Shown here: positions 23,614-41,652 of the stretch, piece after piece
Layout: each line of letters opens with the position of its first letter
How positions within the stretch are numbered: position 1 is the stretch's first letter
NCBI GenBank assembly: GCA_043808155.1
Contig: JAZDFD010000014.1
Location: forward strand, 1-64,000
Direction of reading: 5' to 3'
From: Candidatus Iainarchaeum sp.
Lineage (GTDB): Archaea; Iainarchaeota; Iainarchaeia; Iainarchaeales; JAZDFD01
DNA length: 64,000 bases
Notes under the pieces: generated by a model
Databases searched by the model: none
What the model was told of the DNA's origin: nothing
What the model saw: only the letters and a program-made list of their open reading frames with translations
Position numbers and translations under genes: made by a program

Positions 23614-24677
23614 TGGTTCAGGGAAAACATTACAGAACTGTCTGGATTGAAAATGAAACAGTGAAAATGATTAACCAGAAAATACTCCCGTATAAATTTG
23701 AAATTTCCTCTTTGAAAAATCACAAAGAAACTGCTTCTGCAATAAAAGACATGACTGTCAGAGGCGCGCCTGCAATTGGTGCAGCTGCTGCTTACGCAAT
23801 GCTTCAGGCATGTTATGAAGCGCCTGAAAATGATTTCATGAAGTACATCATAAAAGCATCTGAAACAATAAAAGCCACGCGCCCTACTGCGTATGATTTA
23901 TTTTTCGCAGTTGATAAAATTTTAAGTACAATTTCAGACTCTTCCTCAAAAAAGGGAGCAGTTTCCTCTGCACTTAAAATTGCAAATGAAATTTCAGATT
24001 CATCAGTTGAGCAATGTAAAAAGATAGGTGAATTTGGAAATACACTTCTGACTGAAAATCCCCGTATTTCCACACACTGTAATGCTGGCTGGCTTGCCTG
24101 CGTTGATTGGGGTACGGCGCTTTCTCCAATATATGCTGCAAAGCGTTCAGGAAAAAAGCCATTTGTTTTTGTTGATGAAACAAGACCTCGTTTGCAGGGT
24201 GCAAAACTAACTGCATGGGAACTTTTGAATGAAGGAATTTCTCACGCAGTAATTGTTGATAACGCAATAGGTCACTTTATGCAGCGCGGAGAAATTGATA
24301 TTGTAATTGTTGGTACTGACCGCGTGGCTTCCAATGGTGATTTCGCAAACAAAATTGGAACATATTCTTCAGCAGTTTGTGCAAAAGAAAACGGCATTCC
24401 CTTTTATGTTGCTGCTCCCTTAAGTACATTTGATTTAAATTGCGAATCAGGAAAAGAAATTCCAATTGAAGAAAGAAACGAAAATGAAATTAAATATGTT
24501 TCAGGATTAAACAAAAATAATGAAATTGAAGAAGTTTTAATTTGCCCTGAAAAAAGCTCTGTACGCAATCCCTCTTTTGATGTAACTCCAAACAAATTTG
24601 TAACAGGTTTCATAACTCCAAAGGGGATTATAAAACCAAACACACGAGAAATAAAATCACTTTTTAAGCAGCTATAG
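23610..24677 (+). CDS. mtnA: methylthioribose-1-phosphate isomerase
   Basis: MTVRGAPAIG, RPTA, THCNAGWLA, ETRPRLQGAKLT and ANKIGT. Confidence 0.92.
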   Translation: MMVQGKHYRTVWIENETVKMINQKILPYKFEISSLKNHKETASAIKDMTVRGAPAIGAAAAYAMLQACYEAPENDFMKYIIKASETIKATRPTAYDLFFAVDKILSTISDSSSKKGAVSSALKIANEISDSSVEQCKKIGEFGNTLLTENPRISTHCNAGWLACVDWGTALSPIYAAKRSGKKPFVFVDETRPRLQGAKLTAWELLNEGISHAVIVDNAIGHFMQRGEIDIVIVGTDRVASNGDFANKIGTYSSAVCAKENGIPFYVAAPLSTFDLNCESGKEIPIEERNENEIKYVSGLNKNNEIEEVLICPEKSSVRNPSFDVTPNKFVTGFITPKGIIKPNTREIKSLFKQL

Positions 24678-24739
24678 TCTAGTGGTTAGGATTCGACCTT
24701 CCCAAGGTTGCGACTCGGGTTCGAATCCCGGTAGCTGCA
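24668..24739 (+). tRNA. tRNA-Gly(CCC)
   Basis: GCAGCTA/TAGCTGC acceptor stem, cgacc-tt-CCC-aa-ggttg anticodon arm, GGTTCGAATCCC T arm; no encoded CCA. Confidence 0.93.
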
Positions 24740-24953: not shown

Positions 24954-25470
24954 TTGGGGGGGGGTTGTATAAGGTGGATAGGCAAACATATTTCTAACTT
25001 AATTAAATATGGCTCAGTAATATTTTTATTTGTTTCACTTTTTGCTTTTGCATCAGCAGATCCATTTTTAACATGGCCTGTGGGCGGCATTACTGTTAAT
25101 TCAGGCATTGTTCAATTTACATGGGTGATATTAAAGCATAAATTCGATCCAGATACAAACGTTTTTGAAATTGTAATTGATGATAAGAATACATTTGCTA
25201 CCCCCATAGTAAGCAGGTTGGTTACAACATCAAGGGCAGATGTTTGACTGGAGTGATGTTGAAAATGCTGATTCCTACTTTGCAAAGGTAAAAATGCCTT
25301 CAGGCAATGTTATTGAGTTTCCTGTGCCGTCAGGCAAAAGCCAGTATGTAATTCCTGCAAATGTCTGGGCTTCTCTTCCTTTGGGAAATTATACATGGCA
25401 GGTGAAATCGAAGAGAGGAACTGCGGAAAGCAAATATTCCGGGGCTTGGAGTTTTACGAAGGTTGGATAA
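24954..25470 (+). pseudogene. fragmented secreted Ig/FN3-like repeat protein (two overlapping ORF pieces)
   Basis: Signal-like FLFVSLFAFASA then LTWP..VQFTW..FEIVIDD; second frame FDWSDVENADSY..YTWQVKS..YSGAWSF resembles the C-terminal domain of 47212-48945. Confidence 0.5.
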
Positions 25471-25504
25471 GCTTCTGACCTGGGTTCGAATCCCGGCAGG
25501 CGCA
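25469..25504 (+). repeat. tRNA 3'-half copy (att-like) 1
   Basis: aagcttctgacctgggttcgaatcccggcaggcgca: T arm plus an acceptor 3' strand different from the resident tRNA-Gly. Confidence 0.8.
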
Positions 25505-26104: not shown

Positions 26105-26146
26105 CTTCCCAAGCTTCTGACCCGGGTTCGAATCCCGGTAGCTGCA
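26105..26146 (+). repeat. tRNA-Gly 3'-half copy (att-like) 2
   Basis: cttcccaagcttctgacccgggttcgaatcccggtagctgca versus tRNA cttcccaaggttgcgactcgggttcgaatcccggtagctgca; begins at the anticodon loop. Confidence 0.88.
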
Positions 26147-26252: not shown

Positions 26253-26365
26253 ATTTTTGACATCTGGTGGTGATTCGGAGCCCCCATAATTGAACCAAAA
26301 GCCTTTTAATTCTGCTCTGATAGATATTAATTAGATTTAATTAAAATTTATCGAGGGGTTATTTT

Positions 26366-26599
26366 ATGAATGCAGATACTAATGTGACGACTGTTTCAAT
26401 TCCAAAACCACTTGCAAACAGGATAAAAAAACAGATTGAGGGTACTGGCTTTCATTCAGTTTCCAGCTATGTTACTTTTGTTTTAAGACAATTATTGATG
26501 GTTTCTGAAGGAAATGAGATTTCCAAACATGATGCTTTTGATAAAAAGCTGGAATCTCAAGTAAGAGAGAATCTTAAAAAACTTGGGTATTTGGATTGA
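26366..26599 (+). CDS. CopG/ribbon-helix-helix protein with C-terminal LKKLGYL tail
   Basis: TTVSIPKPLANRIKKQIEGTGFHSVSSYVTFVLR RHH pattern; ends VRENLKKLGYLD. Confidence 0.85.
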   Translation: MNADTNVTTVSIPKPLANRIKKQIEGTGFHSVSSYVTFVLRQLLMVSEGNEISKHDAFDKKLESQVRENLKKLGYLD

Positions 26600-26618
26600 A
26601 AAAGGAGTTGCGATTGGA

Positions 26619-28037
26619 ATGAATAAAGTATTTGTTTTAGGCATAGATGGAGCTCCTTTTCAGCTTATTTTTAATGAATGGTTAGATGAATTGCCGAATA
26701 TAAAACAATTAATGTTAACTGGTGTTTATGCAAAATCAAATTCAACAATTCCCCCATCTACAATACTTGCGTGGACTGCATTTGCATCTGGTTATGACCC
26801 TGGGCAGATGGGTGTGTATAGTTACACTGTCAGAGAAAATAAGTTGTCTGATGAGACAAATTTAGTGAATTCAACTTGCAAAAAGAAAAAAATGATTTGG
26901 GATTTGCTTTCAGCTAATAACAAAAAATCGATTGTACTTAACGTTCCCTTAACATATCCTGTAAACGAGATAAATGGTACGATCATAAGTGGATTTCTAA
27001 CACCTGGGCTTAAAAGCAAATGCTGTTATCCCGAAGAGTTTAAAGAAGAACTTTCTGAACTTTTTGATGACGAATATATGTTTGATGTTTCTGGTTTTGT
27101 AGGTTATAAAAATCTGGCACCAAAAGAACTCATTAAGCGAATTTACAAATTAACGGAAATGAATTTCACTCTTATAGACTATTTTCTGAAAAATAAAGAG
27201 TGGGATTTTTTCATGTCAGTTCTTATTGGCAGTGATAGACTGCAGCATAACTTATGGAGATTCATTGATGAAAAACACATAAAATACGAATACGATTCTG
27301 AATTAAAAGATTCAATAAAAAATTATTACAAATATATTGACAAAAAACTAGGGGAAATTATTTCTTTACTTCCGCCAAAGACTACTGTAATTGTGGCTTC
27401 TGATCATGGATTTGACAGAATGGACGGGCGTATAAATCTGAATCAGTGGCTTATTGATAATTCATATCTTGTATTAAAGCCAGAAATACAGGAAAAAATA
27501 AAAAAAGAAAAACTCACACTAAAACTTTCTTACATTGATTGGACTAAAACAAAAGCATATTCTGTTGGCGCGTATCAGGGGCGAATTTATCTTAACACAA
27601 AAAAAAGAACTCCCTCCGGAATCGTAGCTTCTGATGAAGTTGATTTGCTAAAGAATGAACTTAAGCAAAAACTTATTAAAATAAAAAAAGACACTGGTGA
27701 AAAATTAAATAACAAAGTTTTCTTTCCTGAAGAAATTTATGTTCCAGGTTTTACTGATGAAAGTCCGGATTTAATTGTTTATTTTGATAATCTTAAATGG
27801 GGTGTGAACAATGATATTGGTCACGATTCCCTATATTCTTGGAGCACAATTGTAGGATCCGACGATGCAGGTCATGCACCACAGGGACTTTTTATAATGT
27901 CCGGAAATAAAATTGCTAAAAAAGGTAATTTGGGCGAAATAAGCATTCTAGATGTAACACCATCAATTCTAGAACTTTTGAATCTTGAAATTCCAAAAGA
28001 CATGAAAGGTAAATCAGTTAACTTTAAGGGGCGATAA
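26619..28037 (+). CDS. alkaline phosphatase superfamily protein (nucleotide pyrophosphatase/phosphodiesterase type)
   Basis: VLGIDGA, STIPPSTILAW, DRLQH, SDHGF and DDAGH motifs. Confidence 0.88.
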   Translation: MNKVFVLGIDGAPFQLIFNEWLDELPNIKQLMLTGVYAKSNSTIPPSTILAWTAFASGYDPGQMGVYSYTVRENKLSDETNLVNSTCKKKKMIWDLLSANNKKSIVLNVPLTYPVNEINGTIISGFLTPGLKSKCCYPEEFKEELSELFDDEYMFDVSGFVGYKNLAPKELIKRIYKLTEMNFTLIDYFLKNKEWDFFMSVLIGSDRLQHNLWRFIDEKHIKYEYDSELKDSIKNYYKYIDKKLGEIISLLPPKTTVIVASDHGFDRMDGRINLNQWLIDNSYLVLKPEIQEKIKKEKLTLKLSYIDWTKTKAYSVGAYQGRIYLNTKKRTPSGIVASDEVDLLKNELKQKLIKIKKDTGEKLNNKVFFPEEIYVPGFTDESPDLIVYFDNLKWGVNNDIGHDSLYSWSTIVGSDDAGHAPQGLFIMSGNKIAKKGNLGEISILDVTPSILELLNLEIPKDMKGKSVNFKGR

Positions 28038-28039
28038 AA

Positions 28040-29116
28040 ATGAGTAAAATAAAAACTAAAATCGTGTGTACTATTGGACCTTCTTCTGATTCTATTGAAA
28101 TATTACAGAACTTAAAAGAACATGGAATGACGTTTGCGAGAATAAATATGTCTCATGCAGATTTAAATTATTTAGAGGAAAAATTGAAAATTCTTTCAGA
28201 TTTAAATATTAATGTAATTTTGGATTTACAGGGAGCAGAAATAAGAACAGGCATCACTAAAGACGCTACTTTTTTAGAAAAAGATAAACTTGTGCAGTTA
28301 GTTGACAATTCATGTATAGGTTCTTCTTCCAGTGTTTCTTTTAGAACATCATGGGTTCTTAATCAGCTGAAAAAAGATCAAATTTTAAATATTGATGATG
28401 GCTCAATTCAACTTAGAGTAACAAAACCATTTTCCTTACAAAATCAGTTTGCTGAAGGTATTGTTATAGTTCCCGGTAAGCTTGGAAATTTTAAAACAGT
28501 CAGTATTAATGCTGACTTAAATGCACCCGTTCTTTCGGAATTAGATCTGAAAGCAGTAAGACTTGCAATGCGTTTTGGTGTGCGGTATGTTGCATTATCA
28601 TTTGTAAAAAACCATAAAGATATTCAACAGCTCAGAAATATATGCGGTGGAAAAATGAACATAATTTCAAAAATTGAACACAGAGAATCACTTAATGATC
28701 TTGAAAATATCATAAAAGAATCAGATTCAATTTTAATTGATCGCGGTGATTTAGGTGCGGAAATACCTCTAGAAAAAATACCATTAACTCAGAAAATAAT
28801 AATAAAAAAATGCAGGGCGTTGGGCAAGGAAGTGTTTGTTGCAACCCATTTTTTGGATTCAATGGTTTGGAAACCTACGCCTACAAGAGCTGAATTAAAT
28901 GATGTAATAAATACAGTTATAGATGGCGCTACTGGTTTGGTTCTTGCTAAGGAAACTGCTGCAGGGATGTACCCCGTAGATGCGCTAAAAATGATGGTAA
29001 ATTTATGCAGAAATGCAGAACTTGTTTCAGAATCTTTTAATGAAAGTTCTCAAAAACAACTTTCAGCAAATGAGCAAATAATAAATGTTCTGGATAAATT
29101 AAATTATTTGGAGTAA
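28040..29116 (+). CDS. pyk: pyruvate kinase-like protein lacking the C-terminal domain
   Basis: TKIVCTIGP, RINMSH, KIE, DRGDLG and PTRAE; only 358 aa. Confidence 0.85.
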   Translation: MSKIKTKIVCTIGPSSDSIEILQNLKEHGMTFARINMSHADLNYLEEKLKILSDLNINVILDLQGAEIRTGITKDATFLEKDKLVQLVDNSCIGSSSSVSFRTSWVLNQLKKDQILNIDDGSIQLRVTKPFSLQNQFAEGIVIVPGKLGNFKTVSINADLNAPVLSELDLKAVRLAMRFGVRYVALSFVKNHKDIQQLRNICGGKMNIISKIEHRESLNDLENIIKESDSILIDRGDLGAEIPLEKIPLTQKIIIKKCRALGKEVFVATHFLDSMVWKPTPTRAELNDVINTVIDGATGLVLAKETAAGMYPVDALKMMVNLCRNAELVSESFNESSQKQLSANEQIINVLDKLNYLE

Positions 29117-29120
29117 TAAT

Positions 29121-30282
29121 ATGGCATTAATAAAACCACACAGCGGAAAGCTTGTTAATCGATTTAAAAAATCAAAAAATCCCTCTCAGTTCAAAAATCT
29201 TAAAAAACTTGTTTTAAACGATATGAAAGTTATGGATGTCGAGCAGATTGCTTTGGGCGGGTTCAGTCCTGTTGAAGGATTTTTTTGTAGTGATGACTTA
29301 CAATGTGTCATGGATAATATGAGATTAGTCTCAGGAGATGTGTGGACACTCCCCCTGTCTCTTGATGTAAATCAGAAAACTGCAGATACTTTTTCAGAAG
29401 GAGATGAAATTTCGCTTTTTGATAAAAAAGGCAATTTATTTGCATTATTTAATTTGGAAGAAAAATATAAATATGACAAAAAAGAACTTGTACACAAAAT
29501 ATACGGTACTGATTCTTTGAAGCACGCAGGTGTAAAACAGACTTTTGAACAAGGCAATATTTTACTTGGCGGAAAAATAACTTTACTTGAAAGACCTTTT
29601 TCTGAATTTAGAGCGTATGAATTGACACCTGCTGAAACCAGATCTTTGTTTATGGAAAAAAAATGGAATAAAGTTTTGGGGTTTCACACAAGAAATGTAA
29701 TTCACAGGTCTCATGAGTTTATACAATTGCAAGGGCTTGAAAAAAAGCGGTTGTGATGGTTTATTAGTACACCCTGTAATCGGCAAGAAGAAAAAAGGTG
29801 ATTTTACAACACCTGTAATCATTGAAAGCTATAAACTGATGTCAGATAATTTTTATCCTAAAAATAAGGTTGTTTTTAGTGCGCTTTCAACTTTTTCCAG
29901 GTATGGCGGACCGAGAGAAGCAATATTTACTGCACTTGTAAGACAAAATTATGGGTGTTCACATTTCATTGTTGGACGAGACCACACAGGGGTCTCCGAT
30001 TTTTATGATCTGCATGCATCACATAAAATTTTTGATGAATTACAGGATATTAAAATTAAGCCTGTGAAATTTGATGAAATTTTTTATTGCAGTGAATGTA
30101 AAGGCCCGTCTTCACATAATACGTGTTCCCATTCTCCTAAAAGTCATTTTTATGTTAGCGGTACTAAAATTAGAGCGATGATTCTTGCAGGCAAGCATCC
30201 TCCTGTGGAAGCTATGAGATCTGAAATTGCATCAATGATTATTGAGAAACACAAAAAAGGAGAAAAAATATTTGTTGATTAA
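29121..30282 (+). pseudogene. sat: sulfate adenylyltransferase split by a frameshift in an A7 run
   Basis: Frame 1: GGFSPVEGF, WTLP, GFHTRNVIHRSHE. Frame +1: LLVHP, YGGPREAIF, NYGCSHFIVGRDH, SGTKIR. Removing one A at 29740-29746 fuses them. Confidence 0.88.
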
Positions 30283-30301
30283 TTTTAGTTAGTGGTGTTT
30301 T

Positions 30302-30841
30302 ATGGAAAACAATAATCAGATTTATTTTACACTTTGGTTTACAGGTTTACCTTGTTCTGGTAAAAGTACAATTGCAGAAGAAATTAAAAAAGAACTTTTG
30401 AAAAGAAATCTCGATGTTGATTTACTTGACGGGGATATAATACGGGAAAATATATCCAAAGATTTAGGTTTCACTAAAAAAGACATTATTGAAAATAATC
30501 GTCGCGTTATGAATATATGCAAAACCCTGAATAATCAAAATAAAATAGCCATTGTTGCAATAGTTTCTCCTTTTGAAGAAACCAGAAAACTTGCAAAGAA
30601 AACTATTCCAAACTATGCTGAAATTTTTGTTGATTGCCCAGTTAAGGAATGTATAAAAAGAGATACAAAAGGTCTTTATCGTAAGGCACTGAATAATGAA
30701 ATTGAAAATTTTATTGGAATTCATGTGAAATATGAGCCACCTCAAAATCCCGATCTCAAAATCACTACAATTGATACAAAATTAGATAACAATGTAAAAA
30801 AAATTTTAGAAAAATTAGTTGAGAAAAAATATTTAATTTAA
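30302..30841 (+). CDS. cysC: adenylyl-sulfate kinase
   Basis: WFTGLPCSGKST, LDGD, DLGF, RDTKGLY and YEPP. Confidence 0.95.
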   Translation: MENNNQIYFTLWFTGLPCSGKSTIAEEIKKELLKRNLDVDLLDGDIIRENISKDLGFTKKDIIENNRRVMNICKTLNNQNKIAIVAIVSPFEETRKLAKKTIPNYAEIFVDCPVKECIKRDTKGLYRKALNNEIENFIGIHVKYEPPQNPDLKITTIDTKLDNNVKKILEKLVEKKYLI

Positions 30842-30984
30842 TGACAAAAGCAGATGTTTTGCTTTTTGTACCATAATACATTTAAACAATTCAGAGATTT
30901 TGACATTATGATTATATTCTCATTTAGGGCGTTAATAGATATTGATTTTTATAGTTTTTTAGATTTTTATTTAATAATTAAGGT

Positions 30985-32793
30985 GTGATTATGATTCCCA
31001 GAAACAAAAGAGTGGCAATTATTGGTATTGACGGTGGTAAACCTGCTATTGTTGATAATTTGTTTAAAAAAGGACTTCTGCCTAATCTTGCAGAATTAAA
31101 AGACAAAGGAACATATTCTGATCTTGAATCAATCCCAACTTCCCAGTCCCCTGTTGCGTGGTCCACTATAATTACTGGTTTGGCTCCAAGCAAACATGGT
31201 GTTTTTGATTATCTCATAAGAAATCCAAAAACAATGCAGCTTAAATTTGGGATGAATGATGAACGATTTACTTCAAGTGGAGTAGAATATGTTAATTTAC
31301 GAAAGGGAAAAGCAATTTGGGAAATGTTGGGTGAAAAAGGTAATGTTGGTATAAGTCTTTTTGTTCCAATGACTTTTCCTGCAGATGATTTTAATGGCTT
31401 TCTTTTTTCTGGAATGGGGTTGCCCGATGTCAGAGGCACGCAGGGTGTACCTACACTGTATTCAAATGAGCCAGAAATTGAAACTAAATCCGATATTCAA
31501 AAACTAATTTTCAACAACAACCAAGCAGAAACAGAACTTGTTGGTGTATCTGATATTAAAAAAAAGTTTATTTTGCATATTCAAAAAGACTCCCTCATTA
31601 TAAAACTCAATGATAGTGATGACAAAATATTTCTTAAAGAAGGACAATGGAGTAATTGGATTACACTCACATTTGATGATAATGGAAAAATGATTGATAC
31701 ACTATTCCGATTTAAATTACTTAAGTTCAGAAAAGGGATAGTAAGATTATATCTCTCACCGATAATGTATTCCCCAAGTCAGAATTTTATTCCATTTTCT
31801 TCTCCTGTGGATTACGGTGCAGAACTTTTTGAAAACACAGGAAATTTTAAAGCCCTGAGTTTCGAATCTGATGTTTACGGATTAAAAGAAAAATTAATTG
31901 ATGAAGAAACTTGGTTAGAGGATATGAAATACACTTTTGATAAGCGAATTGCTGCAGCAAAATATTCATTAACTTCAAAACCATGGAAATTTTTTGTAGC
32001 TGATTTTTTCTCAGTTGACAGGGCACAACATCTTTTCTGGAGATCAATTGATAAAAAAAATGAATTATATGATGAAAGTAAAGACTATGACTATGTTATT
32101 GATGATGCTTATGTATATACAGATGAAAAAATAGGTGAGTTATTAAAATGCTTTAATGAAGACGACTTAGTTTTTGTTGTGTCAGATCATGGTTTCTGCA
32201 GTTATCGAAAAAATGTTGAATTAAATAAAATTCTCATGGATAAAGGTTTTTTGAAGTTGAAAGACGATAAAAAATCTGAAAACTTAAATGATATTGATTG
32301 GAGCAAAACAAAAGCATACGCTCTTGGTTTTGGTGCAATTTATATAAATCTTGAAGGCAGAGAACTGAAAGGGATTGTAAAGACAGAAGATTATGAAACA
32401 CTAAGACGTGAAATTTCAGAAGAAATTAGTGGTTTTTCTTTCAATAATGAAAAAGTCATTAATGACGTTTTGTCAGGTGAAAAAATCCATTCTGAAGGTA
32501 ATTTAGATGAAATGCCAGACCTTGTGCCAATATATGCTGATGGTTTTAGATCAGGACGTGCATCTACTTTGGGCTTAGTATCGCTTAATACTGATACTGT
32601 GCACTCCAATCTGAGTAAATGGTCAGGTGACCATATAGGCCCTTTTGATTTATCAGATAATTTTGGATTTCTTTTTTCAAATCAAATTTTAAATTTTGCT
32701 TCGTCCTCTTTGTTTGATTTATCCGTAACATCATTAGATTACTTTGGTGTTGAAAAAAGCCCTAGCTTGAAAGGCAAATCATTATTGGAGTGA
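30985..32793 (+). CDS. alkaline phosphatase superfamily protein (phosphodiesterase type, with insert)
   Basis: IIGIDGG, QSPVAWSTIITG, DRAQHLFW, SDHGF and WSGDH. Confidence 0.88.
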   Translation: MIMIPRNKRVAIIGIDGGKPAIVDNLFKKGLLPNLAELKDKGTYSDLESIPTSQSPVAWSTIITGLAPSKHGVFDYLIRNPKTMQLKFGMNDERFTSSGVEYVNLRKGKAIWEMLGEKGNVGISLFVPMTFPADDFNGFLFSGMGLPDVRGTQGVPTLYSNEPEIETKSDIQKLIFNNNQAETELVGVSDIKKKFILHIQKDSLIIKLNDSDDKIFLKEGQWSNWITLTFDDNGKMIDTLFRFKLLKFRKGIVRLYLSPIMYSPSQNFIPFSSPVDYGAELFENTGNFKALSFESDVYGLKEKLIDEETWLEDMKYTFDKRIAAAKYSLTSKPWKFFVADFFSVDRAQHLFWRSIDKKNELYDESKDYDYVIDDAYVYTDEKIGELLKCFNEDDLVFVVSDHGFCSYRKNVELNKILMDKGFLKLKDDKKSENLNDIDWSKTKAYALGFGAIYINLEGRELKGIVKTEDYETLRREISEEISGFSFNNEKVINDVLSGEKIHSEGNLDEMPDLVPIYADGFRSGRASTLGLVSLNTDTVHSNLSKWSGDHIGPFDLSDNFGFLFSNQILNFASSSLFDLSVTSLDYFGVEKSPSLKGKSLLE

Positions 32794-32798
32794 TATTT

Positions 32799-32957
32799 AT
32801 GACTGAAAAGAAAAAACTGACTGAAGCAAAAGAACCTATACAAAAAAGTAAAACAAAAAAAGAAGATGACGAAAAAATAAAAAAAGAAGATGAAGACGCA
32901 ATAGAAAAAGAAAATGACTTGGTTAAACGACGTTTAAAAGCACTGGGTTATATTTAA
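32799..32957 (+). CDS. 52-aa charged peptide ending in RRLKALGYI
   Basis: Manual ORF MTEKKKLTEAKEPIQKSKTKKEDDEKIKKEDEDAIEKENDLVKRRLKALGYI; own RBS GGAGTGA overlapping the upstream stop; different frame from the upstream gene. Confidence 0.75.
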   Translation: MTEKKKLTEAKEPIQKSKTKKEDDEKIKKEDEDAIEKENDLVKRRLKALGYI

Positions 32958-32964
32958 TTTATTT

Positions 32965-34386
32965 TTATAAATAACCCATTCCTCTTAATCTTTCTTCAGT
33001 TTTTTTGCTTAGTACAACTTCGGGTGTTTCAGGTAATTTGTAATTTTTAGCATCATTGAAAAAGTCGTCTATTTCTTTTGAAAATTTATTAACTAAGTCT
33101 GGCATTTTTTCTGCTAAATTATTTTTCTCTTCAGGATCATTTTCTAGATTATAAAGTTCGATTCTTGTTGAGAATTTCTGCTTTCTTTTTTCTGTATTTA
33201 AAATTAAATTTATTGCACTCTTAACATATGTTTTGATATGCTTTTTTGGATTACTTTTGTTAAATATATTCGCGCTTTTCATGTCAAAGACTTTCTTTAT
33301 GAGTTTCCACTTTGAAGTTCTGACTGAGCGAATGATATGTGCCCCTTTATGATATTTAAATTCATTAAAAGCAACAAGATTTGGTTCTTGTTCTTCATCA
33401 TTAATGAAAGAAGTCAAATCAACTCCGTGGAAATTACAATTATGTTCAATTCCTGCAAGTGAAAGAACAGTTGGAACAAGATCCATTGTTCTGACCAATG
33501 ATTTAATCCTGACACCTGCAGGGATTTTAGGACCATGGAAAATAAATGGCACTTTAATTTGGTTATCGTATAAACTCAGCATTCCGTGTCCGATATGTCT
33601 ATATGGCAAATCGGGATTGTCATGTTCCATAAATGCTTCCCCATGATCTGCAAGTATAATTATGACTGTATTTTCCCAAACACCCTCTTTTTTCAGTCTA
33701 TCAAAAATAGTTTTTAATTTTTCGTCAGCTAATGCAATACCTGCATTGTAAAGTTCGCTAAGTCTTTGTATCTGTTCAGTGTTAATATCAATATCTTTGC
33801 CTCTTATGCCGTTAAAGTTATCGTTGCCTCCGATTTCTGTTGCTTTTTTACCCCCAATATAAATCTCTTTATCAGTTGAACAGAATATTTTTTTTAATCT
33901 TGATGGCGGATTATAAGATGCATGCACATCGATTATTCTAACAAATGCAAAAAAACTATTTTCTTTATTATTTGAAATCCATTTAAGCAAACCATCCTTT
34001 ACTGTGTCTAACTTATCCATGTTTGTTTCAAATAAATCGCAACCACGGGCAAAACCATGTTCTTTGGAAACGAAACCACCACTGCTGAAACACGCAGTTT
34101 TATAATTTGCCTGTTTAATAATTTCAGGAAGCATGGGGCTCTTTGGGTTTATCATTACGTTCCGATCAATAAATCCGTGTGCATAAGGATACATTCCTGT
34201 AAACAAAGAACCGTGCGCTGTTGGTGACCAATTACCCTGACTTATTGCCTGTAAAAATATTGTGCCTTCTTCTGCAAGTTTGTCAATATTAGGTGATGTT
34301 TTCCCCCCGTAACCATAACACGAAAGCCTGTCTGCACGTAGTGCATCAATATCAAAAATTATAAAATTGGGTCTTTCAGAAACCAT
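32965..34386 (-). CDS. sulfatase-like hydrolase/transferase
   Basis: PNFII.DIDALRAD, SPNID, WSPTAHGSLFTG, ADHGE, ELYNLENDPEE; ends RLRGMGYL. Confidence 0.88.
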   Translation of the reverse strand: MVSERPNFIIFDIDALRADRLSCYGYGGKTSPNIDKLAEEGTIFLQAISQGNWSPTAHGSLFTGMYPYAHGFIDRNVMINPKSPMLPEIIKQANYKTACFSSGGFVSKEHGFARGCDLFETNMDKLDTVKDGLLKWISNNKENSFFAFVRIIDVHASYNPPSRLKKIFCSTDKEIYIGGKKATEIGGNDNFNGIRGKDIDINTEQIQRLSELYNAGIALADEKLKTIFDRLKKEGVWENTVIIILADHGEAFMEHDNPDLPYRHIGHGMLSLYDNQIKVPFIFHGPKIPAGVRIKSLVRTMDLVPTVLSLAGIEHNCNFHGVDLTSFINDEEQEPNLVAFNEFKYHKGAHIIRSVRTSKWKLIKKVFDMKSANIFNKSNPKKHIKTYVKSAINLILNTEKRKQKFSTRIELYNLENDPEEKNNLAEKMPDLVNKFSKEIDDFFNDAKNYKLPETPEVVLSKKTEERLRGMGYL

Positions 34387-34680: not shown

Positions 34681-35979
34681 ATGGCACAGATAAAAAGTTT
34701 TGCTAAAAATGTCATATTTGAACAAAATAAAAAATTGATAATGGCAATTACAGGTATTATTTACACTTATATTATTGCTAATTATTTGGGACCTGCAGAT
34801 TACGGCTTAGTGATTTATTTTACCGCTTTTATGGTGTTGCTTAATTTTTTTGGTGTATCTGTAATTCAATCATTAATACGCGTGTTTATACCAAAATGTA
34901 AATCAAAGGATTTATTTTTTAAAATTTTAAAATGGCAATACATAATTGTTTTACCTGTTGTTGCAGCGGTTTTCTTTTTTGCGCCAGTGATAACTGAATT
35001 CATTGGAAAAGATTTCCCATTTCTTTTACGCTGGTCTGCGATTCTAGCACTTTTTACCCCGCTGTATACTTCTCTGATTTATCTTTTTCGCGGATTTAAA
35101 CTTTTTGGAAAAGCAGTTAAGATTGAATCTGTGATGCAGATTGTTGTTTTACTTGCATCAATTCTATTTGTAATCGTTATGGGTTTTGGAATGGTTGGCG
35201 TCATATATGCACAATTGTTTGCAACCATTGTGTGTATTATTTTGGGAATTTATTATTTCAGAAAAATACCTTTTTCAAATTTAACATTAGAGTCTTCTGA
35301 AATTAAAAAATTTGTTAAATTTCGTTATCCTACTGCGTTTATAGAAAGTGGTTACCAGCAGTTTATTATTTTAATGATGGGTATTTTTATCACACCTGCA
35401 GTTTTGGGATATTTTTATCTTGCAGAAAAAATCTATGGTTTGTTTATCGGAAAGACAGCGACTACCTTGGGAGATGTACTCCACCCCTATTTAATGGAAA
35501 AATACAAGGAAAAAGACGTACTTGGGAGATTTGTGTCATTAGGCATAAAAGCAAATTTTATTGTGAATTCATTTTTCATGATTGTGATGGTTATTACAAC
35601 CCAATTCCTTCTGACAATTTTTATGCCTGATTTTGTTCCCGCAGGTATTATTGTTTTGGGTTTTGGACTAATTGCACTTATGCATCCTGTTGAAATGATG
35701 AATCACATTTTTGTAAGTATTAATCGGATGGATCTTGCGTTTAAAGAAAGAGTGATTACAACAATTATGAAAATTGTCGGTGTTCTATTGCTTATGCCTT
35801 GGTTCACTGTTACAGCTCTTATTTGGGCACCTGCATTTAATCTTTGGTCAGAATTTGTGATATTCCGTAAATATTCAAATTTTTTAAATATAAAAGTCCA
35901 GATAATTCCGAGGCGAAAAGACATATCTTTCTTTTGGTCGATTATTAAAAGAGGCTTTAAAAAATATGTGGTAAGGTGA
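34681..35979 (+). CDS. oligosaccharide flippase (Wzx/MOP family)
   Basis: About 12 TM segments; YLGPADYG and LGYFYLA motifs. Confidence 0.85.
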   Translation: MAQIKSFAKNVIFEQNKKLIMAITGIIYTYIIANYLGPADYGLVIYFTAFMVLLNFFGVSVIQSLIRVFIPKCKSKDLFFKILKWQYIIVLPVVAAVFFFAPVITEFIGKDFPFLLRWSAILALFTPLYTSLIYLFRGFKLFGKAVKIESVMQIVVLLASILFVIVMGFGMVGVIYAQLFATIVCIILGIYYFRKIPFSNLTLESSEIKKFVKFRYPTAFIESGYQQFIILMMGIFITPAVLGYFYLAEKIYGLFIGKTATTLGDVLHPYLMEKYKEKDVLGRFVSLGIKANFIVNSFFMIVMVITTQFLLTIFMPDFVPAGIIVLGFGLIALMHPVEMMNHIFVSINRMDLAFKERVITTIMKIVGVLLLMPWFTVTALIWAPAFNLWSEFVIFRKYSNFLNIKVQIIPRRKDISFFWSIIKRGFKKYVVR

Positions 35980-36123
35980 TTGTTTGAAAGCAAGCTTAGC
36001 AACATTTGCTGATAAAAAATGGGTTCATTTTTAAATAAATCGGACTGCTTTTTATTGACGGAGAGTACATTTATGACAGTGTAAATGTTTAAGGGTTTTT
36101 AAAAAGAAAAAATAAGTGTTTTT

Positions 36124-36696
36124 ATGATATCACTGATTTATTGGCATCCTGTCGTTTACAGAACAACAATGAATGTCTTATTTGCACTTTCAAACTACAA
36201 TTTAAAAGAGGAATATAAAAAAATTGCAGAAGAAGTTGGCTCACTAAGCGTTTTAGATTTATGCTGTGGTGATTGTTATTTTAAAAAATTTATTCCAAAT
36301 AATACTTATACTGGAATTGATTTCAATAAAACTTTTATAAAATGGGCAAGTAAAAAAGGGATAAATGCAGAGAACCGTGATGTTTTGAAGGAAAATTTGC
36401 CTTCTGCAGACTGCGTTGTAATGCTCGCAAGTCTGTATCACTTCCTCCCTACAAGCCAAGAGGCAATATTGCAAAAAATGATTGATTCTGCAAAGAAAAA
36501 AGTAATAATTTCAGAACCTGTCGAAAACATTTCTTCTGGACAAGCAGGTTTATTTGGAAAATTCCTTTCCAATCCCGGGGGGGAGTATACTGGGCAGAGA
36601 TTTTCCAGGGAGCAGCTGATTTCATTGTATAAAAAATTTAACGCTTCAAAGATTATGGATATGGGACGAACAATGATAGGGGTATTTGAAAAATAG
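36124..36696 (+). CDS. class I SAM-dependent methyltransferase
   Basis: VLDLCCGD, YTGID and SLYHF. Confidence 0.8.
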   Translation: MISLIYWHPVVYRTTMNVLFALSNYNLKEEYKKIAEEVGSLSVLDLCCGDCYFKKFIPNNTYTGIDFNKTFIKWASKKGINAENRDVLKENLPSADCVVMLASLYHFLPTSQEAILQKMIDSAKKKVIISEPVENISSGQAGLFGKFLSNPGGEYTGQRFSREQLISLYKKFNASKIMDMGRTMIGVFEK

Positions 36697-36711
36697 TTTT
36701 CAGGTGTTTTT

Positions 36712-37902
36712 ATGAAACCAGCAATTGAAGGCGGAAAACCAGTAAGAGGGCAGTATCTCGTATTTGGTAACCCAGAGATTCAGCAGGAAGAAATAGACGA
36801 AGTTATAGACTCAATGAAAAGCGGCTGGCTTGGAACAGGCCCAAAAGTGAGAAAATTCGAGGAGAATTTCCAAAACTACATTGGTTGTAAACATGCAAAA
36901 GCGTTAAACTCCTGTACTGCGGGTTTACATCTCTCACAGCTTGTTTCAGGAATAAAACCAGGGGATGAAGTAATCACAACTCCATTAACTTTTGCCTCAA
37001 CTGCAAATACAATTATTCATGCTGGTGCAACTCCAATTTTCGCAGATATTGAAAAAGAAACAATGAACATCTCCCCTGATGAAATTGAAAAGAAAATAAC
37101 TAAAAAAACAAAAGCAATAATTCCTGTGCACATGTGTGGCAGACCCTGTAATATGGATGCCATTAATGAAATTGCAATTAAGCACAATTTAATTGTTATC
37201 GAAGATGCGGCACACGCTGTAGAAGCAAAATACAGAGGAAAAAAGATTGGTAACATCTCCCCCTTAACTTGTTTTAGTTTTTATGTTACAAAAAATGTTG
37301 TTACTGGCGAAGGCGGAATGGTTACGACAAATAATTCTGAATGGGCTCAAGAAATTGAAAAATATGCTTTACATGGTTTGAGTAAGGGCGCATGGGAACG
37401 CTACTCTGATAAAGGCTTCAAACATTATCAAGTGTTACTCCCTGGTTATAAATACAATATGATGGATTTGCAGGCCGCAATTGGTTTGCATCAACTTGAG
37501 CGTGTGGAGAACAACCTTAAAAAACGCGAAAAAATTTGGAAAAAATATGATGATGCATTTGCAAATCTCCCATTGCAAACACCGGCACATGTGGAGAAAA
37601 ACACAACTCATGCGCGGCACCTTTACACAATCCTCTTAGATATTAAAAAGCTCAATAAAGACAGAGATTTCATCCAAGACGCACTGCATCGTGAAAATAT
37701 AGGGACAGGAATTCATTTTATTTCATTGCATCTGCACAAATTTTACAGGGAAAAATTCAACTTCTCACAAAAAGATTTCCCAAATGCAAATTATATTTCT
37801 GAAAGAACTATTTCACTGCCACTTTCACCAAAACTAAATGATAAAGATGTTGAAAATGTGATTGAATCAGTGAGAAAAGTTTTAAATTATTACGAAAGAT
37901 AG
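36712..37902 (+). CDS. DegT/DnrJ/EryC1/StrS family sugar aminotransferase
   Basis: NSCTAGLH, IEDAAHA and FSFYVTKNVVTGEGG (PLP lysine). Confidence 0.93.
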   Translation: MKPAIEGGKPVRGQYLVFGNPEIQQEEIDEVIDSMKSGWLGTGPKVRKFEENFQNYIGCKHAKALNSCTAGLHLSQLVSGIKPGDEVITTPLTFASTANTIIHAGATPIFADIEKETMNISPDEIEKKITKKTKAIIPVHMCGRPCNMDAINEIAIKHNLIVIEDAAHAVEAKYRGKKIGNISPLTCFSFYVTKNVVTGEGGMVTTNNSEWAQEIEKYALHGLSKGAWERYSDKGFKHYQVLLPGYKYNMMDLQAAIGLHQLERVENNLKKREKIWKKYDDAFANLPLQTPAHVEKNTTHARHLYTILLDIKKLNKDRDFIQDALHRENIGTGIHFISLHLHKFYREKFNFSQKDFPNANYISERTISLPLSPKLNDKDVENVIESVRKVLNYYER

Positions 37903-37910
37903 GTTTTTAC

Positions 37911-38621
37911 ATGGTTTTTGGAGTAAGTTTAGTTGTACCATGCTACAACGAAGAAACAATCATTGAAAAATCAGTTTTAAAAATCCAAAAAGTGTTTGAA
38001 AAAAAAGGCTACAACTATGAAATACTTCTGATCGATGATAAAAGTAAAGATTTCACAAAACAAATAATTCAAAGACTTTCTAAAACCAACCCGAGAATAA
38101 AATCTATGTTTCATTCACAAAACCAGGGCCGAGGCCAAACAGTAAAAGATGGGATAAATGTATCAAAGCATAATATTGTTGGATTTATAGACATTGACCT
38201 TGAAATAGCAGCAGAATATCTTCCAAAGGCAATAGAACAAATTCAGAAGGGTTTTGATGTTTGTATAGGCGTTAGACATTACCAACGCGGATTGAGAACA
38301 TTGCACAGAGCTATTTTAAGCAAAGGCTACAGTTTTATGAGCAGAGCTATTTTAAATCTTCCATTAAAAGATACTGAATCTGGTTTAAAATTCTTCAATA
38401 AGAAAACAACAATGAAAATTCTCAAAGAAACTCAGAACAAACATTGGTTTTGGGATACTGAAATAATGGCACTTGCATATTATTCCGGACTTAAAATAAG
38501 TGAAATAGATGTTATTTTTGAAAAGAATTATGAGAGTCCTTCAACAGTTAATATATTTTCAGATAGTTTTGATTATTTTAATGAACTTATTAAGTTTCGA
38601 AAAAGAATAAAAAAGAAGTGA
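37911..38621 (+). CDS. GT2 glycosyltransferase (polyprenol-phosphate glycosyltransferase type)
   Basis: VVPCYNEE, IDDKSKD, NQGRG, DID, DTESGLK and WFWDTE. Confidence 0.88.
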   Translation: MVFGVSLVVPCYNEETIIEKSVLKIQKVFEKKGYNYEILLIDDKSKDFTKQIIQRLSKTNPRIKSMFHSQNQGRGQTVKDGINVSKHNIVGFIDIDLEIAAEYLPKAIEQIQKGFDVCIGVRHYQRGLRTLHRAILSKGYSFMSRAILNLPLKDTESGLKFFNKKTTMKILKETQNKHWFWDTEIMALAYYSGLKISEIDVIFEKNYESPSTVNIFSDSFDYFNELIKFRKRIKKK

Positions 38622-38645
38622 AATAGACCTTGAGGGGTTTGTAAA

Positions 38646-39392
38646 ATGAGAAATGGAAATAACTCTTTGTTTGAACGATTTGAAAAAACTAGTAGAACAA
38701 ATTGGTGGTATATTGCAAGATTAGAACTTATAACACAAATTTTTAAGGATTTTTACAAAGGAAAGAAAATTTTAGATCTCTGTGGAGGAGTTGCATCTGT
38801 CCCTGAAATTTCCTTAGAAAAAGGTTTTGTTCTTTTAGATTCTTCAAATGAAGCAGTGGGCTACTGTAAATCAAAAAACATTAATGCACTTGAAGGAGAT
38901 GCTACAAAAATTCCATTTGGAGAACGCAGTTTTGATGTTGTTTTAGCATTAGATGCTCTTGAGCATATTCCAGATGATGCAAAAGCACTTTCTGAAATAT
39001 ACCGGATTATCAAAAAAGATGGTAGAGTATTAATAAGTGTTCCTGCTTTCCAAAGTCTTTGGAGACAATCAGATTTAGATGCAGGTCATTTAAGAAGATA
39101 CTCAAAAAAAGAAATCATTAACAAAATTGAAAAAGCAGGATTTAAAGCTGAGAAAATTTTTTACTGGAATTTTTTCCTGTTTTTTCCACTTTGGATAAAA
39201 ACTAAACTAGAGGTGAAACCAAAGAAAAGAAAGGTATCTCAACACGAAGTGATTTTTGGGGACGAACTAGAGGTAAACAAAGTGTCAAATAAAATTTTAC
39301 TTTCGCTTCTGAGAGTTGAAAATTTTCTTATAAGAAATAAATTGAATTTTCCTTTTGGAGTCTCCTTATTTCTATATTTAAAAAAAATCTAA
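38646..39392 (+). CDS. class I SAM-dependent methyltransferase
   Basis: ILDLCGG, DALEHIPDD, VPAF..LW...D..AGHLRRY. Confidence 0.85.
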   Translation: MRNGNNSLFERFEKTSRTNWWYIARLELITQIFKDFYKGKKILDLCGGVASVPEISLEKGFVLLDSSNEAVGYCKSKNINALEGDATKIPFGERSFDVVLALDALEHIPDDAKALSEIYRIIKKDGRVLISVPAFQSLWRQSDLDAGHLRRYSKKEIINKIEKAGFKAEKIFYWNFFLFFPLWIKTKLEVKPKKRKVSQHEVIFGDELEVNKVSNKILLSLLRVENFLIRNKLNFPFGVSLFLYLKKI

Positions 39393-40346
39393 AGAAAAGT
39401 GCTTTTTTGTTGTACTGAATACTATCGCTCCGATTAATGCCATGAACCAATAACTAACCGTAACATATAGAAGTGAATATGCGACTATTGTTTCAGCAGA
39501 TATTGGGTAAAAAGAAAACACAAAGAGCATTGCAGCCTCTCTCGTACCTAAGCCGGAAATAGTTATTGGAACAAGCTCAATAAGTGTAACTATCGGGACA
39601 ACAATTGCCATAAAATAAAAAGGCACATTATCGACTCCAAGTGATAACAACAAAAAATAGGCCATACAAATTACTAAAAACCAACTTAAAAGTGAAATAA
39701 AAATAGAAAAAACTACAAGCCCCCTGTGTTTATTTGTTATGCTTAAAGAATCGTAAAATGAATTATAGCTAACTGCTAGTTTTGGTTTATGTTTTTCTGG
39801 AACGAGTACATTAACTAGTGGTTTTAGCAATTTTTTTAAATAATGCTGACGCATAACGACAATAACTGCAATCATAAAAATAAAAATCCCCAAAAATAAA
39901 ACTTCCAACGGAAGTACCACCACTCCAAATAAAAAAGAAAAAACAAGTATTGATACAACTCCCAAACAAATTAAAATTCCTATATCAATTATTCTATCCA
40001 ACACAACAGAAGAAAAAGCAGTTGATTTTGATTTAATTTCCTCTCCTGCATAAAATACTCTTAATAAATCCCCTGCTCTTGCGGGTGTAAACACACTTGC
40101 AAAAAAACCTATTAAAAAAAAGTTAATGCATTTTTTAAGTGACATTTGCGAACCATGAGCTTTTATCAACTGTTGCCACTTAAAAGCCTTTAGAATAATC
40201 GCAGTTATTACTAACACTAAGACTACAAATAAGTAAAACAAATTAATCTGGGAAAAAATCTCAATAAGTCGTGGTATGTTAATGTTTAGGAGTATGAAAA
40301 TGAAAAGCGCAATCCCAATCAGTGCAAAATATTTTTTCAAAGCCAT
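39378..40346 (-). CDS. lysylphosphatidylglycerol synthase TM-domain / flippase-like membrane protein
   Basis: KW..L, TPARAGD..R, DRIID and PITISGLGTRE motifs. Confidence 0.85.
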   Translation of the reverse strand: MALKKYFALIGIALFIFILLNINIPRLIEIFSQINLFYLFVVLVLVITAIILKAFKWQQLIKAHGSQMSLKKCINFFLIGFFASVFTPARAGDLLRVFYAGEEIKSKSTAFSSVVLDRIIDIGILICLGVVSILVFSFLFGVVVLPLEVLFLGIFIFMIAVIVVMRQHYLKKLLKPLVNVLVPEKHKPKLAVSYNSFYDSLSITNKHRGLVVFSIFISLLSWFLVICMAYFLLLSLGVDNVPFYFMAIVVPIVTLIELVPITISGLGTREAAMLFVFSFYPISAETIVAYSLLYVTVSYWFMALIGAIVFSTTKKHFSLDFF

Positions 40347-40353
40347 TTTAACA

Positions 40354-41652
40354 CTACAAATCAAGTATTATAAATAAATAAAAACCATACGCCCAGGCTG
40401 TAATTAAAACCAAATAAGTAAAAGCCATTGCCGCAAACTTTCGGTCTAATTTAATTTTTCCCAGTATTTCCTTCCAGTTCACTACTGTAAACGCAGAAAA
40501 TAGCATCACAATTGGCATTATTTGAATATGATATCTCTGTTCAGCATGCACTACTATATACAGCAAGATAAAATAAATCATAAATAAAAATAACATAAGC
40601 CTGTTTTTGGGTTCAGAATAAAATAATGCCGGGATTGCAAGCAGCATTACAGCAACAAAGAAAAGTATTGTGTAATATCCAAAAGAAACATAAATAGGGT
40701 CATTTGAAAGCCCATCATAATACTTATCGCTAGTGTCCGCTCCTAAGCTATAGGTTTCTACCCAGAAAAATAATACAAGCCGTATCCAACTATCGGAAAT
40801 AAACTTCACAGGGTTTGAAATAATGTAAGATGCACCCAGAATATACCCATTTTCATTGCTTCTGCCATCACTTATTGCGTCTATTCTTTCTATAGTCTCA
40901 GGAGACAATTTATTATTGTATATTTGATCGGCTTCAGGATTGTTAAACATGTAAAAAGCCCATTCGCTTGTAGCATCTAAGAAAATAAACTTGTTAAATT
41001 GCGAATAAAGATACGCAATATAAGGCATTGTTAAAACTAATCCGATTATTACAATTACTGCTACTTTACGCAAATCAATTTTTTTTCTAAGATAAAGTAC
41101 TATTGGAATAATTAAAAAAAATCCTTTTGCAGCGCTTCTTATTAAAACATTCAAACCTAATAAAAGTCCTGCAATTGCTGATTTTTTGTAATTTATTTCT
41201 CCCGAACTAAATATTAAAAGTAAAGTAAAAAAGAAAAGGAATAAAGTTTCTGTAAGAATTAAATCAGCAAATAAAACAGAATAACCATAAATTGCCCACA
41301 ACACGCCTGCTACAACACCAACTTTCTCGTTAAAAATTTTACTTCCCAAAACAAAAACAAGTACTGCAGTCATTGCCCCAATTAAATGTTGGATAAATTT
41401 CATTGCAAGAATATTTTTTCCAAAAAAAATAGTTATCAACCACAAAAATGCAGGATATCCTGGGGTCCAGGAAAGTAAGACTGACGGGTCTACGTATCCT
41501 CCCTGGAAAAGTGCCCCTGCAATCTGAAAATACCTTTGCCCATCGCCAAAAAGATTTTCATTTGAAAAGAGAAAGAAATAAACAAGTCTTACAACTAACG
41601 CTAATAAGAAAATCCCAAGCATTAATTTAACTCTCTTATCACAAAACTTCAT
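40354..41652 (-). CDS. ArnT/PMT-like GT-C membrane glycosyltransferase
   Basis: ALVVRL, GDGQRY, PGYPAFL, ILTETLF and EQRY; many TM segments. Confidence 0.8.
   Translation of the reverse strand: MKFCDKRVKLMLGIFLLALVVRLVYFFLFSNENLFGDGQRYFQIAGALFQGGYVDPSVLLSWTPGYPAFLWLITIFFGKNILAMKFIQHLIGAMTAVLVFVLGSKIFNEKVGVVAGVLWAIYGYSVLFADLILTETLFLFFFTLLLIFSSGEINYKKSAIAGLLLGLNVLIRSAAKGFFLIIPIVLYLRKKIDLRKVAVIVIIGLVLTMPYIAYLYSQFNKFIFLDATSEWAFYMFNNPEADQIYNNKLSPETIERIDAISDGRSNENGYILGASYIISNPVKFISDSWIRLVLFFWVETYSLGADTSDKYYDGLSNDPIYVSFGYYTILFFVAVMLLAIPALFYSEPKNRLMLFLFMIYFILLYIVVHAEQRYHIQIMPIVMLFSAFTVVNWKEILGKIKLDRKFAAMAFTYLVLITAWAYGFYLFIILDL

Follow-up and report, generated by a model that had tools for sequence, protein, structure and literature searches.

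A C-terminal LxxLGY tail shared by a regulator, a free peptide and enzymes of an archaeal sulfate-activation locus as a candidate docking element for NPP-type enzymes

A cluster that combines a CopG-type gene with sulfate activation has been described in Pyrococcus yayanosii, where PYCH_17520-17560 encode, in this order, copG, sat, a DHH-family pApase, a nucleotide pyrophosphatase/phosphodiesterase (NPP) and cysC; the available part of that report offers a guess that the NPP hydrolyses pyrophosphate (PMC8268124). A sat gene and the CopG gene with the adjacent number have both been found to be upregulated with sulfur in a study whose accessible text is silent on any tail (PMC6981617). In Halobacterium salinarum, according to the available text, Agl30 (VNG1056C) and Agl31 (VNG1057C) were shown by deletion and heterologous expression to sulfate the N-glycan (PMC11980604). 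Here we analyze a 64,000-nucleotide stretch of Candidatus Iainarchaeum sp. (contig JAZDFD010000014.1, positions 1 to 64,000; hereafter the window) that belongs to contig C14 of a 1.08-Mb genome of 88% completeness. Genes for a ribbon-helix-helix (RHH) protein, an AlkP superfamily enzyme, pyruvate kinase, sulfate adenylyltransferase (sat), adenosine 5'-phosphosulfate (APS) kinase (cysC), a second AlkP enzyme and a short peptide follow each other on the plus strand, and are succeeded by a convergent sulfatase-fold gene and a surface-glycan cluster (Table 1). The two enzymes are denoted AlkP1 and AlkP2, labels that, like AlkP3 below, were coined for this analysis. The RHH protein, the peptide and the sulfatase-like protein share a tail that consists of an acidic helix and LxxLGY. 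We favor, with a probability of roughly 0.55, the reading that this tail is a detachable docking lid for the NPP-type enzymes of clusters for 3'-phosphoadenosine 5'-phosphosulfate (PAPS) and that at this locus it is lent in trans.

The RHH protein ends in VRENLKKLGYLD, the peptide in VKRRLKALGYI and the sulfatase-like protein in TEERLRGMGYL, in agreement with a sequence-only reading of the locus that had claimed a common motif for these three ends. The same reading had stated that the two NPP-type enzymes stop at KGKS without the tail, each next to one small tail-bearing gene; indeed, AlkP1 ends in KGKSVNFKGR and AlkP2 in KGKSLLE, with the RHH gene directly 5' of the former and the peptide gene directly 3' of the latter. 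Genome-wide, [LM]xx[LM]GY within four residues of the stop codon is found in 4 of 3230 ATG-started open reading frames (ORFs) of at least 40 residues, three of which lie in this 8-kb locus, with a chance rate per ORF end of about 2.4e-4 as estimated from the internal rate of the motif. When 3839 ORF C-termini were ranked with a profile of the tail, of which the three locus ends were themselves rows, these ends came first with 33.6, 26.5 and 24.9 bits, followed by 9.8 bits for the next. The fourth motif end, LKTLGYYR in a 70-residue ORF (C1:70575-70787, minus strand) beside a RecA/KaiC-like ATPase gene, scores 5.0 bits and was taken as a chance match. Three features went unremarked in the sequence-only reading, namely the operator-like repeat, the tail-like end of the pyruvate kinase and the frame break in sat (Table 1). 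Among 24 rows of the RHH family, L70, L73, G74 and Y75 of the tail are invariant; one RHH protein (P0269) has two LGY tails in tandem.

The free peptide is likely encoded by a real gene, to judge from its counterpart in another family and the codon pattern of the two. The sequence GGAGTGA lies 5 nt before the ATG and the frame differs from that of AlkP2, as noted in the sequence-only reading, which had excluded readthrough on these grounds. A readthrough or an assembly split of a single AlkP2-peptide gene is ruled out by the different frame, by the lack of any fusion among 120 homologues and by the same split in G028, a genome of another family. In the latter, a 39-residue counterpart that ends in DIVERRLKAFGYI (L053:7475-7594) is located right behind an AlkP2 orthologue whose product is 63% identical to that of the window. 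Over the last 16 codons, the peptide genes of the window genome (G000) and of G028 show 5, 1 and 7 differences at codon positions 1, 2 and 3, with four synonymous codons, and their N-terminal parts have charge alone in common. Conservation of the ORF, the lack of which had been named together with lack of expression as a refuting outcome, is observed in a second family with a codon-level pattern in the tail. Both peptides are called as proteins in the protein collection.

AlkP1 and AlkP2 match PF01663 and have the NPP-type fold; relatives of these proteins carry the JGI name 'predicted AlkP superfamily phosphohydrolase/phosphomutase', which we take to correspond to COG3379. AlkP2 contains D14, S53, D343, H347, D399, H400 and H548 at the metal-site and nucleophile positions, and the same set is kept in AlkP1; by analogy to Xac NPP, from which the roles of these residues were assigned, H347 and H548 are presumably metal-1 ligands. 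Accordingly annotated, both proteins are predicted phosphodiesterases with a full bimetal site and a Thr or Ser nucleophile. For AlkP2 and the C-terminal 34 residues of the peptide, one of the pairs for which multimer prediction had been proposed, a complex model scores 0.80, compared to 0.02 for the best control; 116 of 157 solved pairs and 2 of 215 mismatched pairs attained the pass mark, which is a rough guide here since own alignments were used. The runs agree in at least 74% of the contacts, and the predicted local distance difference test (pLDDT) value of the partner is at least 70. In the model, the peptide helix rests on Y74, L75, L84-F86, T150-V153, V295, Y296, K299 and L527 of AlkP2, G32 of the peptide contacts H347 and W544, Y33 contacts W544, and I549, next to H548, is part of the interface; S53, D343 and H548 are not among the interface residues named, with the status of an unnamed residue being uncertain. 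The model supports binding of the tail at the active-site mouth of AlkP2, with Gly-Tyr placed by a metal-ligand His. Because no solved structure with the tail was found (none at E below 0.1), the high score is unlikely to stem from a like complex. The solved-structure search returned none for AlkP1 either. A model of a tail-fused AlkP1 homologue superimposes on Xac NPP with Z 30.4 and a root-mean-square deviation of 3.4 over 347 aligned residues, and in this homologue (L106) the tail helix has a pLDDT of 90 after a linker at 60. The tail stretch of the 488-residue model is aligned by none of 50 structure rows, none of which extends past residue 464.

Next to a single clade of enzymes, the tail changes its carrier. 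It is found in cis on some AlkP/sulfatase-fold enzymes and, next to tail-less ones, on RHH, CysD, CysC, pyruvate kinase and DUF2061 proteins or as a bare peptide. AlkP2 is present in 10 of the 215 genomes of the window's phylum. Its neighbor is the peptide in two of these (G000 and G028) and a tail-bearing CysD-type protein in five (G027, G059, G095, G097 and G100); a gene for CysD with the tail is located 1.5-1.8 kb upstream in two (G012 and G017), and G103 has a leader-bearing AlkP2 with no tail gene at this place. The CysD-type carriers contain a PAPS_reduct domain and are encoded beside CysN; in the window genome, PF01507 gives two weak matches, both outside the locus. An extra tail is present on CysC in several loci. 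None of the 120 best AlkP2 homologues and three of 120 AlkP1 homologues have the tail, all three being fusions of AlkP1 with pyruvate kinase that end in a full LGY tail. In bacterial loci, the gene behind an AlkP2-type gene encodes either an RHH-like protein with the tail or an AlkP1-type enzyme that has its own tail in cis. In a FastTree phylogeny of 132 of 177 rows, with redundant Thermococcales-type and Gaiellales rows thinned and the tail columns cut, the eight AlkP1 proteins with a cis tail form one clade nested within the tail-less AlkP1 group. In the 133-genome phylum of a Thermococci record (G215), AlkP1 is present in 66 genomes, the RHH protein in 72, both in 64 and neither in 59, and 59 of the 64 co-occurrences are on one contig within 5 kb; because these genomes are kin, this is a pattern and not a statistic. 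Of the two genomes with AlkP1 only, G307 ends at a contig edge, and in G325 sat looks broken. The proposal that the tail docks in trans is supported by the model of AlkP2 with the peptide, the conserved peptide, the swaps of carriers and the natural fusions. Activation of the enzymes, a sulfo or phospho group on the Tyr and coupling of enzyme state to transcription, which the sequence-only reading had also suggested, are hypothetical.

Several additional architectures were observed in these loci. Natural fusions combine AlkP1 with pyruvate kinase, with the tail at the end, or an NTP-transferase domain with AlkP1 (P0227, P0228, P0242 and P0231). A family of 356-366 residues that starts with MHFYES and has no Pfam hit adjoins AlkP1 (L053:7609-8679, L248:5314-7492, L249 and L257), and five AlkP1 homologues of 812-825 residues (P0187, P0194, P0207, P0209 and P0218) have a long extension with an end like that of this family, probably a fusion. 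A short tail-less AlkP-fold protein of 236-256 residues, a possible third docking partner, accompanies tail-bearing RHH and CysD proteins and sometimes CysN (L250:13842-14552, L251, L255, L259, L260 and L001:10251-11018). In bacterial tandems, an RHH-like LGY gene comes after two AlkP2 genes that both encode a leader (L082, L086, L087, L090, L111, L114, L116, L120, L121 and L137); one enzyme of the pair has a signal, a transmembrane segment and a basic stretch and the other a Tat- or lipoprotein-like leader, and L087 additionally contains a tail-bearing DUF2061 membrane protein.

The RHH protein likely regulates its own operon, as suggested by a predicted operator repeat whose sequence varies along with the recognition strand. 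This protein gave no hit in Pfam or NCBIfam (the NikR match is weak, E 0.52); in the Atlas it falls near CopG clusters at 0.94, the nearest cluster with RHH_1 (28% of members) being at 0.89, and its relatives carry the source names CopG or Arc/MetJ. An inverted repeat (26319-26352) is located between the TATA-like element and the RHH start. With a matrix built from 20 distinct sites of other genomes, the predicted operator within this repeat ranks first in the entire genome, with 22.2 bits compared to 17.0 for the next other site. Of 46 RHH genes with a TT[VI]SIP strand, 36 have the 11-bp TAATTA repeat upstream, as against none of 32 with other strands, a count for which the pattern was written after the sites were seen and the Actinomycete controls are GC-rich, such that the matrix ranking is the firmer test; the 36 comprise 27 of 29 Thermococcales-type loci and 9 of 17 others, including the window, a Patescibacteria record and G014, a genome of the same order as that of the window. 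Instead, an ACACTC repeat precedes 13 of 16 RHH genes with VT[LI]KIP; the ACACTC...AGTGT form is seen upstream of such genes both among Actinomycetes and within the phylum around the Thermococci record, there in two genomes (L005-L021, L259 and L260). No strong operator site was among those listed for the regions upstream of AlkP2 and the sulfatase-like gene, and a sigma-70 promoter scan, the model of which is unsuited to an archaeon, gave 40 sites with 41 expected. A second RHH type without LGY precedes AlkP2 orthologues (L053:5478-5666, L054:15487-15678, L057:7055-7270, L060:10028-10231 and L252-L254) and ends in another conserved Tyr motif, I[IV]S[FI]PYL(A)G; several of these genes have TTGCAATT-like repeats upstream.

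The convergent sulfatase-fold gene encodes a candidate sulfotransferase of the Agl30/Agl31 kind, by analogy of its fold, its LGY end and its location in a glycan cluster. The formylglycine motif of sulfatases is C/S-x-P-x-R; this protein reads W-S-P-T-A-H-G-S-L-F-T-G instead, and its relatives WTLPSH. In a model built from a 19-row alignment, the tail helix block has a pLDDT of 90 after a linker block at 68. Translation of the cloning primers given in the available text yields the C-termini HLEDLGYL and LEELGYT for Agl30 and Agl31, respectively (PMC11980604). According to the same text, both proteins with StrepII-His tags placed directly after the tail still produced sulfated glycan in Haloferax, and therefore a free C-terminus is not needed (PMC11980604).

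Under the docking-lid reading, the acidic helix with LxxLGY would be a movable module of PAPS-making clusters that docks at the active-site mouth of NPP-type AlkP enzymes, with the free peptide serving AlkP2 and the RHH protein serving AlkP1 at this locus. The tail might act as a lid that completes the site for PAPS or APS turnover in the sulfation of surface glycans, and on CysD or CysC it might tether the source of activated sulfate to the enzyme. Through the tail of the RHH protein, free enzyme could either titrate this repressor away from the operator that governs RHH-AlkP1-pyk-sat-cysC or keep it bound there.

Several observations weigh against this reading. The expectation that tail-less enzymes co-occur with small LGY genes fails in part: among 80 metagenomic AlkP2-type loci from bacteria, of which 49 are informative and 31 have too little flanking sequence, a tail gene is next to the enzyme in 22 of 49 and none adjoins it in 27. 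By form, the neighbor is present for 2 of 19 single leader-bearing enzymes, 7 of 9 single soluble ones, 10 of 10 tandems and 3 of 11 whose start was undetermined, with a few Tat-like leaders misfiled by the automatic call. The distinction between leader-bearing and soluble forms was rejected as a rule for the need of a tail, with only three independent pairs and p 1. In the phylum of the window, four of eight AlkP1 orthologues lack a tail gene in the locus; G103 and G104 have tail genes elsewhere in the genome, and a search of G111 and G112, which are 78-79% complete, found none. In G253 and G254, the tail-bearing RHH gene heads a sat-DHH-cysC operon without AlkP, and AlkP-type genes are located elsewhere; replacement of AlkP1 by the DHH pApase was considered and dropped because P. 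yayanosii has both in one cluster. The complex prediction covers one pair, AlkP2 and the peptide, the modelled fused homologue L106 has Arg at the nucleophile position, and a high pLDDT of the terminal helix does not locate this helix. Furthermore, sat is frameshifted in this assembly. The break at the run of seven A may stem from a slip in assembly, from phase variation or from gene decay; L052 has the orthologue as a single 387-residue frame, and among the pieces listed from the reads of two low-share DNA runs none spans the break. Finally, the tail profile matched 406 representatives, and among the best 150 of these the first five places go to peptidoglycan-binding repeats, whose helix looks similar; multi-repeat hits were discarded as unrelated domains, and most short hits are RHH-like or fragments, with a few tail-only peptides. 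Similar C-terminal helices also end Thermococcales CysC and P-loop sulfotransferases, and because of these look-alikes the motif can arise as a plain helix cap.

It seems improbable, nevertheless, that LxxLGY has no specific partner in trans, being a common C-cap that arose as a copy of the terminal CysC helix or of cis tails and serves for oligomerization, stability or as a common tag, and that adjacency to the enzymes reflects operon membership. The leading rank of the peptidoglycan-binding repeats, the many tail-less enzymes without a tail neighbor the Thermococcales CysC, which ends in ...ELGYL within its own last helix, and the CysC of L002 and L168, which has a second copy of such an end, are in line with such a cap; the bare peptide with codon-level conservation confined to the tail, complex-model controls of at most 0.02 and the swap of carriers beside one enzyme clade are not. 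We consider it about as improbable that the tail is an inhibitory, antitoxin-like plug, such that AlkP1 and AlkP2 would hydrolyse PAPS, APS or nucleotide sugars and do harm in the cytoplasm unless blocked, with the RHH protein and the enzyme jointly repressing a tandem operator. The modelled interface at the active-site mouth, the RHH gene ahead of the enzyme gene with a tandem 11-bp repeat and the lack of a partner for 17 of 19 single leader-bearing forms would all suit a plug, but the link with leaders is not independent of descent, and the tail is present in cis on many enzymes, including the active Agl30 and Agl31. It is also found on CysD and CysC and therefore fits tethering better than inhibition.

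An unlikely alternative, which is compatible with docking and adds covalent chemistry to it, is that the tail Tyr receives sulfate from PAPS through the action of the NPP-type enzyme that lacks a tail. Charged tails would then pass the sulfate to Ser or Thr of Agl30/Agl31-type sulfatase-fold enzymes, which sulfate the glycan, and the RHH protein would sense the sulfate supply through the state of its own tail. Tyr sulfation on the tails of the RHH repressor, ATP sulfurylase and APS kinase could in this case be a protein-borne currency that signals to both transcription and supply, a speculative idea that, if true, would explain the sulfate source of Agl30/Agl31-type enzymes across archaea and bacteria. 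The invariant C-terminal Tyr on a mobile peptide is what such a carrier would show: Tyr follows LxxLG in all 89 distinct ends (42 RHH, 14 CysD, 22 AlkP3 and 11 sulfatase-like), Phe never does, and no Tyr is present among the ten commonest of 46 internal LxxLG matches in the window genome, with the count including many rows that are kin and leaving out 16 rows without such an end and three chance matches in the tail-less RHH type. The peptidoglycan-binding repeats likewise favor Tyr at this position (82 of 94), although they were selected with the tail profile. Gly-Tyr is modelled at the metal-1 side of AlkP2, where NPP enzymes bind the leaving group or acceptor, but S53, D343 and H548 are missing from the named interface, and phosphorus is the usual point of attack for NPP sites. 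In favor of the transfer, the 88%-complete genome yielded no sulfotransferase of PF13469 or PF00685; against it, ordinary P-loop sulfotransferases are encoded in the Gaiellales loci. Agl30 and Agl31 bear the tail, but their activity with tags fused right behind it weighs against such a transfer. A precedent is the C-terminal Tyr peptide of PatA, which carries acetyl to PatB as described in the available part of that work (PMC12148441).

Table 1. Features of the locus and its surroundings in the window
Feature	Coordinates	Strand	Basis or remarks
Putative BRE/TATA-like promoter element	26297..26309	+	AAAAGCCTTTTAA; similar A-run and TTTA[TA]A before the same repeat in Thermococcales-type loci
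Predicted RHH operator, 11-bp periodic palindromic TAATTA repeat between TATA and start codon	26326..26346	.	Matrix score
CopG/RHH-type protein, 77 residues, LGY tail at about residues 57-77 (26534-26596)	26366..26599	+	Named relatives, clusters
AlkP1, tail-less NPP-type bimetal enzyme, Thr at nucleophile position	26619..28037	+	PF01663, E 4.6e-36
Pyruvate kinase, barrel only, degenerate tail-like end LDKLNYLE	28040..29116	+	TIGR01064
Sulfate adenylyltransferase (sat), two frames, break at seven-A run 29740-29746	29121..30282	+	Halves match profile 3-212 and 214-385
APS kinase (cysC), copy without tail	30302..30841	+	TIGR00455, above cut-off
AlkP2, tail-less NPP-type bimetal enzyme, 600 residues, Ser53 at nucleophile position; predicted tail-binding partner	30991..32793	+	PF01663
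Free charged peptide, 52 residues, ends in LGY tail	32799..32957	+	Counterpart in G028
Sulfatase-fold protein with own LGY tail, SPTAH replacing the formylglycine motif; candidate Agl30/Agl31-like sulfotransferase	32965..34386	-	PF00884, E 5e-38
Surface-glycan genes: flippase, methyltransferases, DegT aminotransferase, GT2, LPG-synthase-type and PMT-type membrane proteins	34681..41652	.	Pfam scan

Upstream of the sulfate operon, 42 nt of the 3' end of a tRNA-Gly(CCC) gene (24668-24739) recur at 25463-25504 (69%) and 26105-26146 (90%). These two copies flank a gene pair, DUF7557 and PemK/MazF-like, and have the look of att-like scars from insertions stacked directly before the operon.

The tail bears on two questions, namely from which donor and by which mechanism the sulfatase-fold glycan sulfotransferases of archaea work, and what role, so far a guess, the NPP has in the widespread copG-sat-NPP-cysC cluster. 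A tail of 15-20 residues common to a regulator, activating enzymes and transferases, for which a docking site is predicted and an operator defined, opens both to experiment, and cultured Thermococcales and Halobacterium carry the parts. Even without covalent chemistry, it would be uncommon among regulatory designs for a repressor to be linked to its enzyme by a part detached from that enzyme's own family. No literature on the tail, the operator or sulfate transfer from an NPP to Tyr was found in a search that left most subscription journals and supplements outside its reach.

Among the known systems, the cluster of P. yayanosii is similar in that CopG/RHH comes first, that sat and cysC are grouped with a gene for a type I phosphodiesterase/NPP and that there is no reductive branch; the available text names no tail, operator or contact between RHH and enzyme (PMC8268124). 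The window differs from it by the presence of pyruvate kinase, the lack of a DHH hit (one query) and the addition of a second NPP and a free peptide. Xanthomonas NPP and ENPP4-7 (7mw8, 4lr2, 5udy and 5ege) share the fold (Z about 30) and the full bimetal site with Thr or Ser, at 12-16% identity to the modelled enzyme, and no counterpart of the tail is present among the listed rows. RHH antitoxins of type II toxin-antitoxin systems and trigger enzymes resemble the RHH protein in that the antitoxin has a C-terminal partner-binding tail and a tandem operator before its own gene. Here, the presumed partner is a metabolic AlkP enzyme, the tail also occurs in cis and on biosynthetic enzymes, and the match lies in gene order and operator. 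PatA/PatB (PMC12148441) and DltB/DltX/DltD are Tyr-peptide acyl shuttles. In these, a short C-terminal peptide with an invariant Tyr is likewise fused or located on a small protein beside a transferase; these systems employ MBOAT and SGNH folds that move acyl groups across the membrane, in contrast to the soluble bimetal AlkP folds of the window. The scanned proteins of the locus are AlkP-fold enzymes, pyruvate kinase, Sat and CysC, with no MBOAT loader or SGNH acceptor among them. Agl30 and Agl31 share with the sulfatase-fold protein the AlkP/sulfatase fold, the glycan gene cluster and the C-terminal LGY, but have their tails in cis, and the available text contains no mention of PAPS, a donor or the motif (PMC11980604). 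The tail is a genuine module that seems to have escaped description so far, in addition to a gene cluster that is already known. The window adds the bare peptide with a passing AlkP2 model, the swap of peptide and CysD within one enzyme clade, and the operator.

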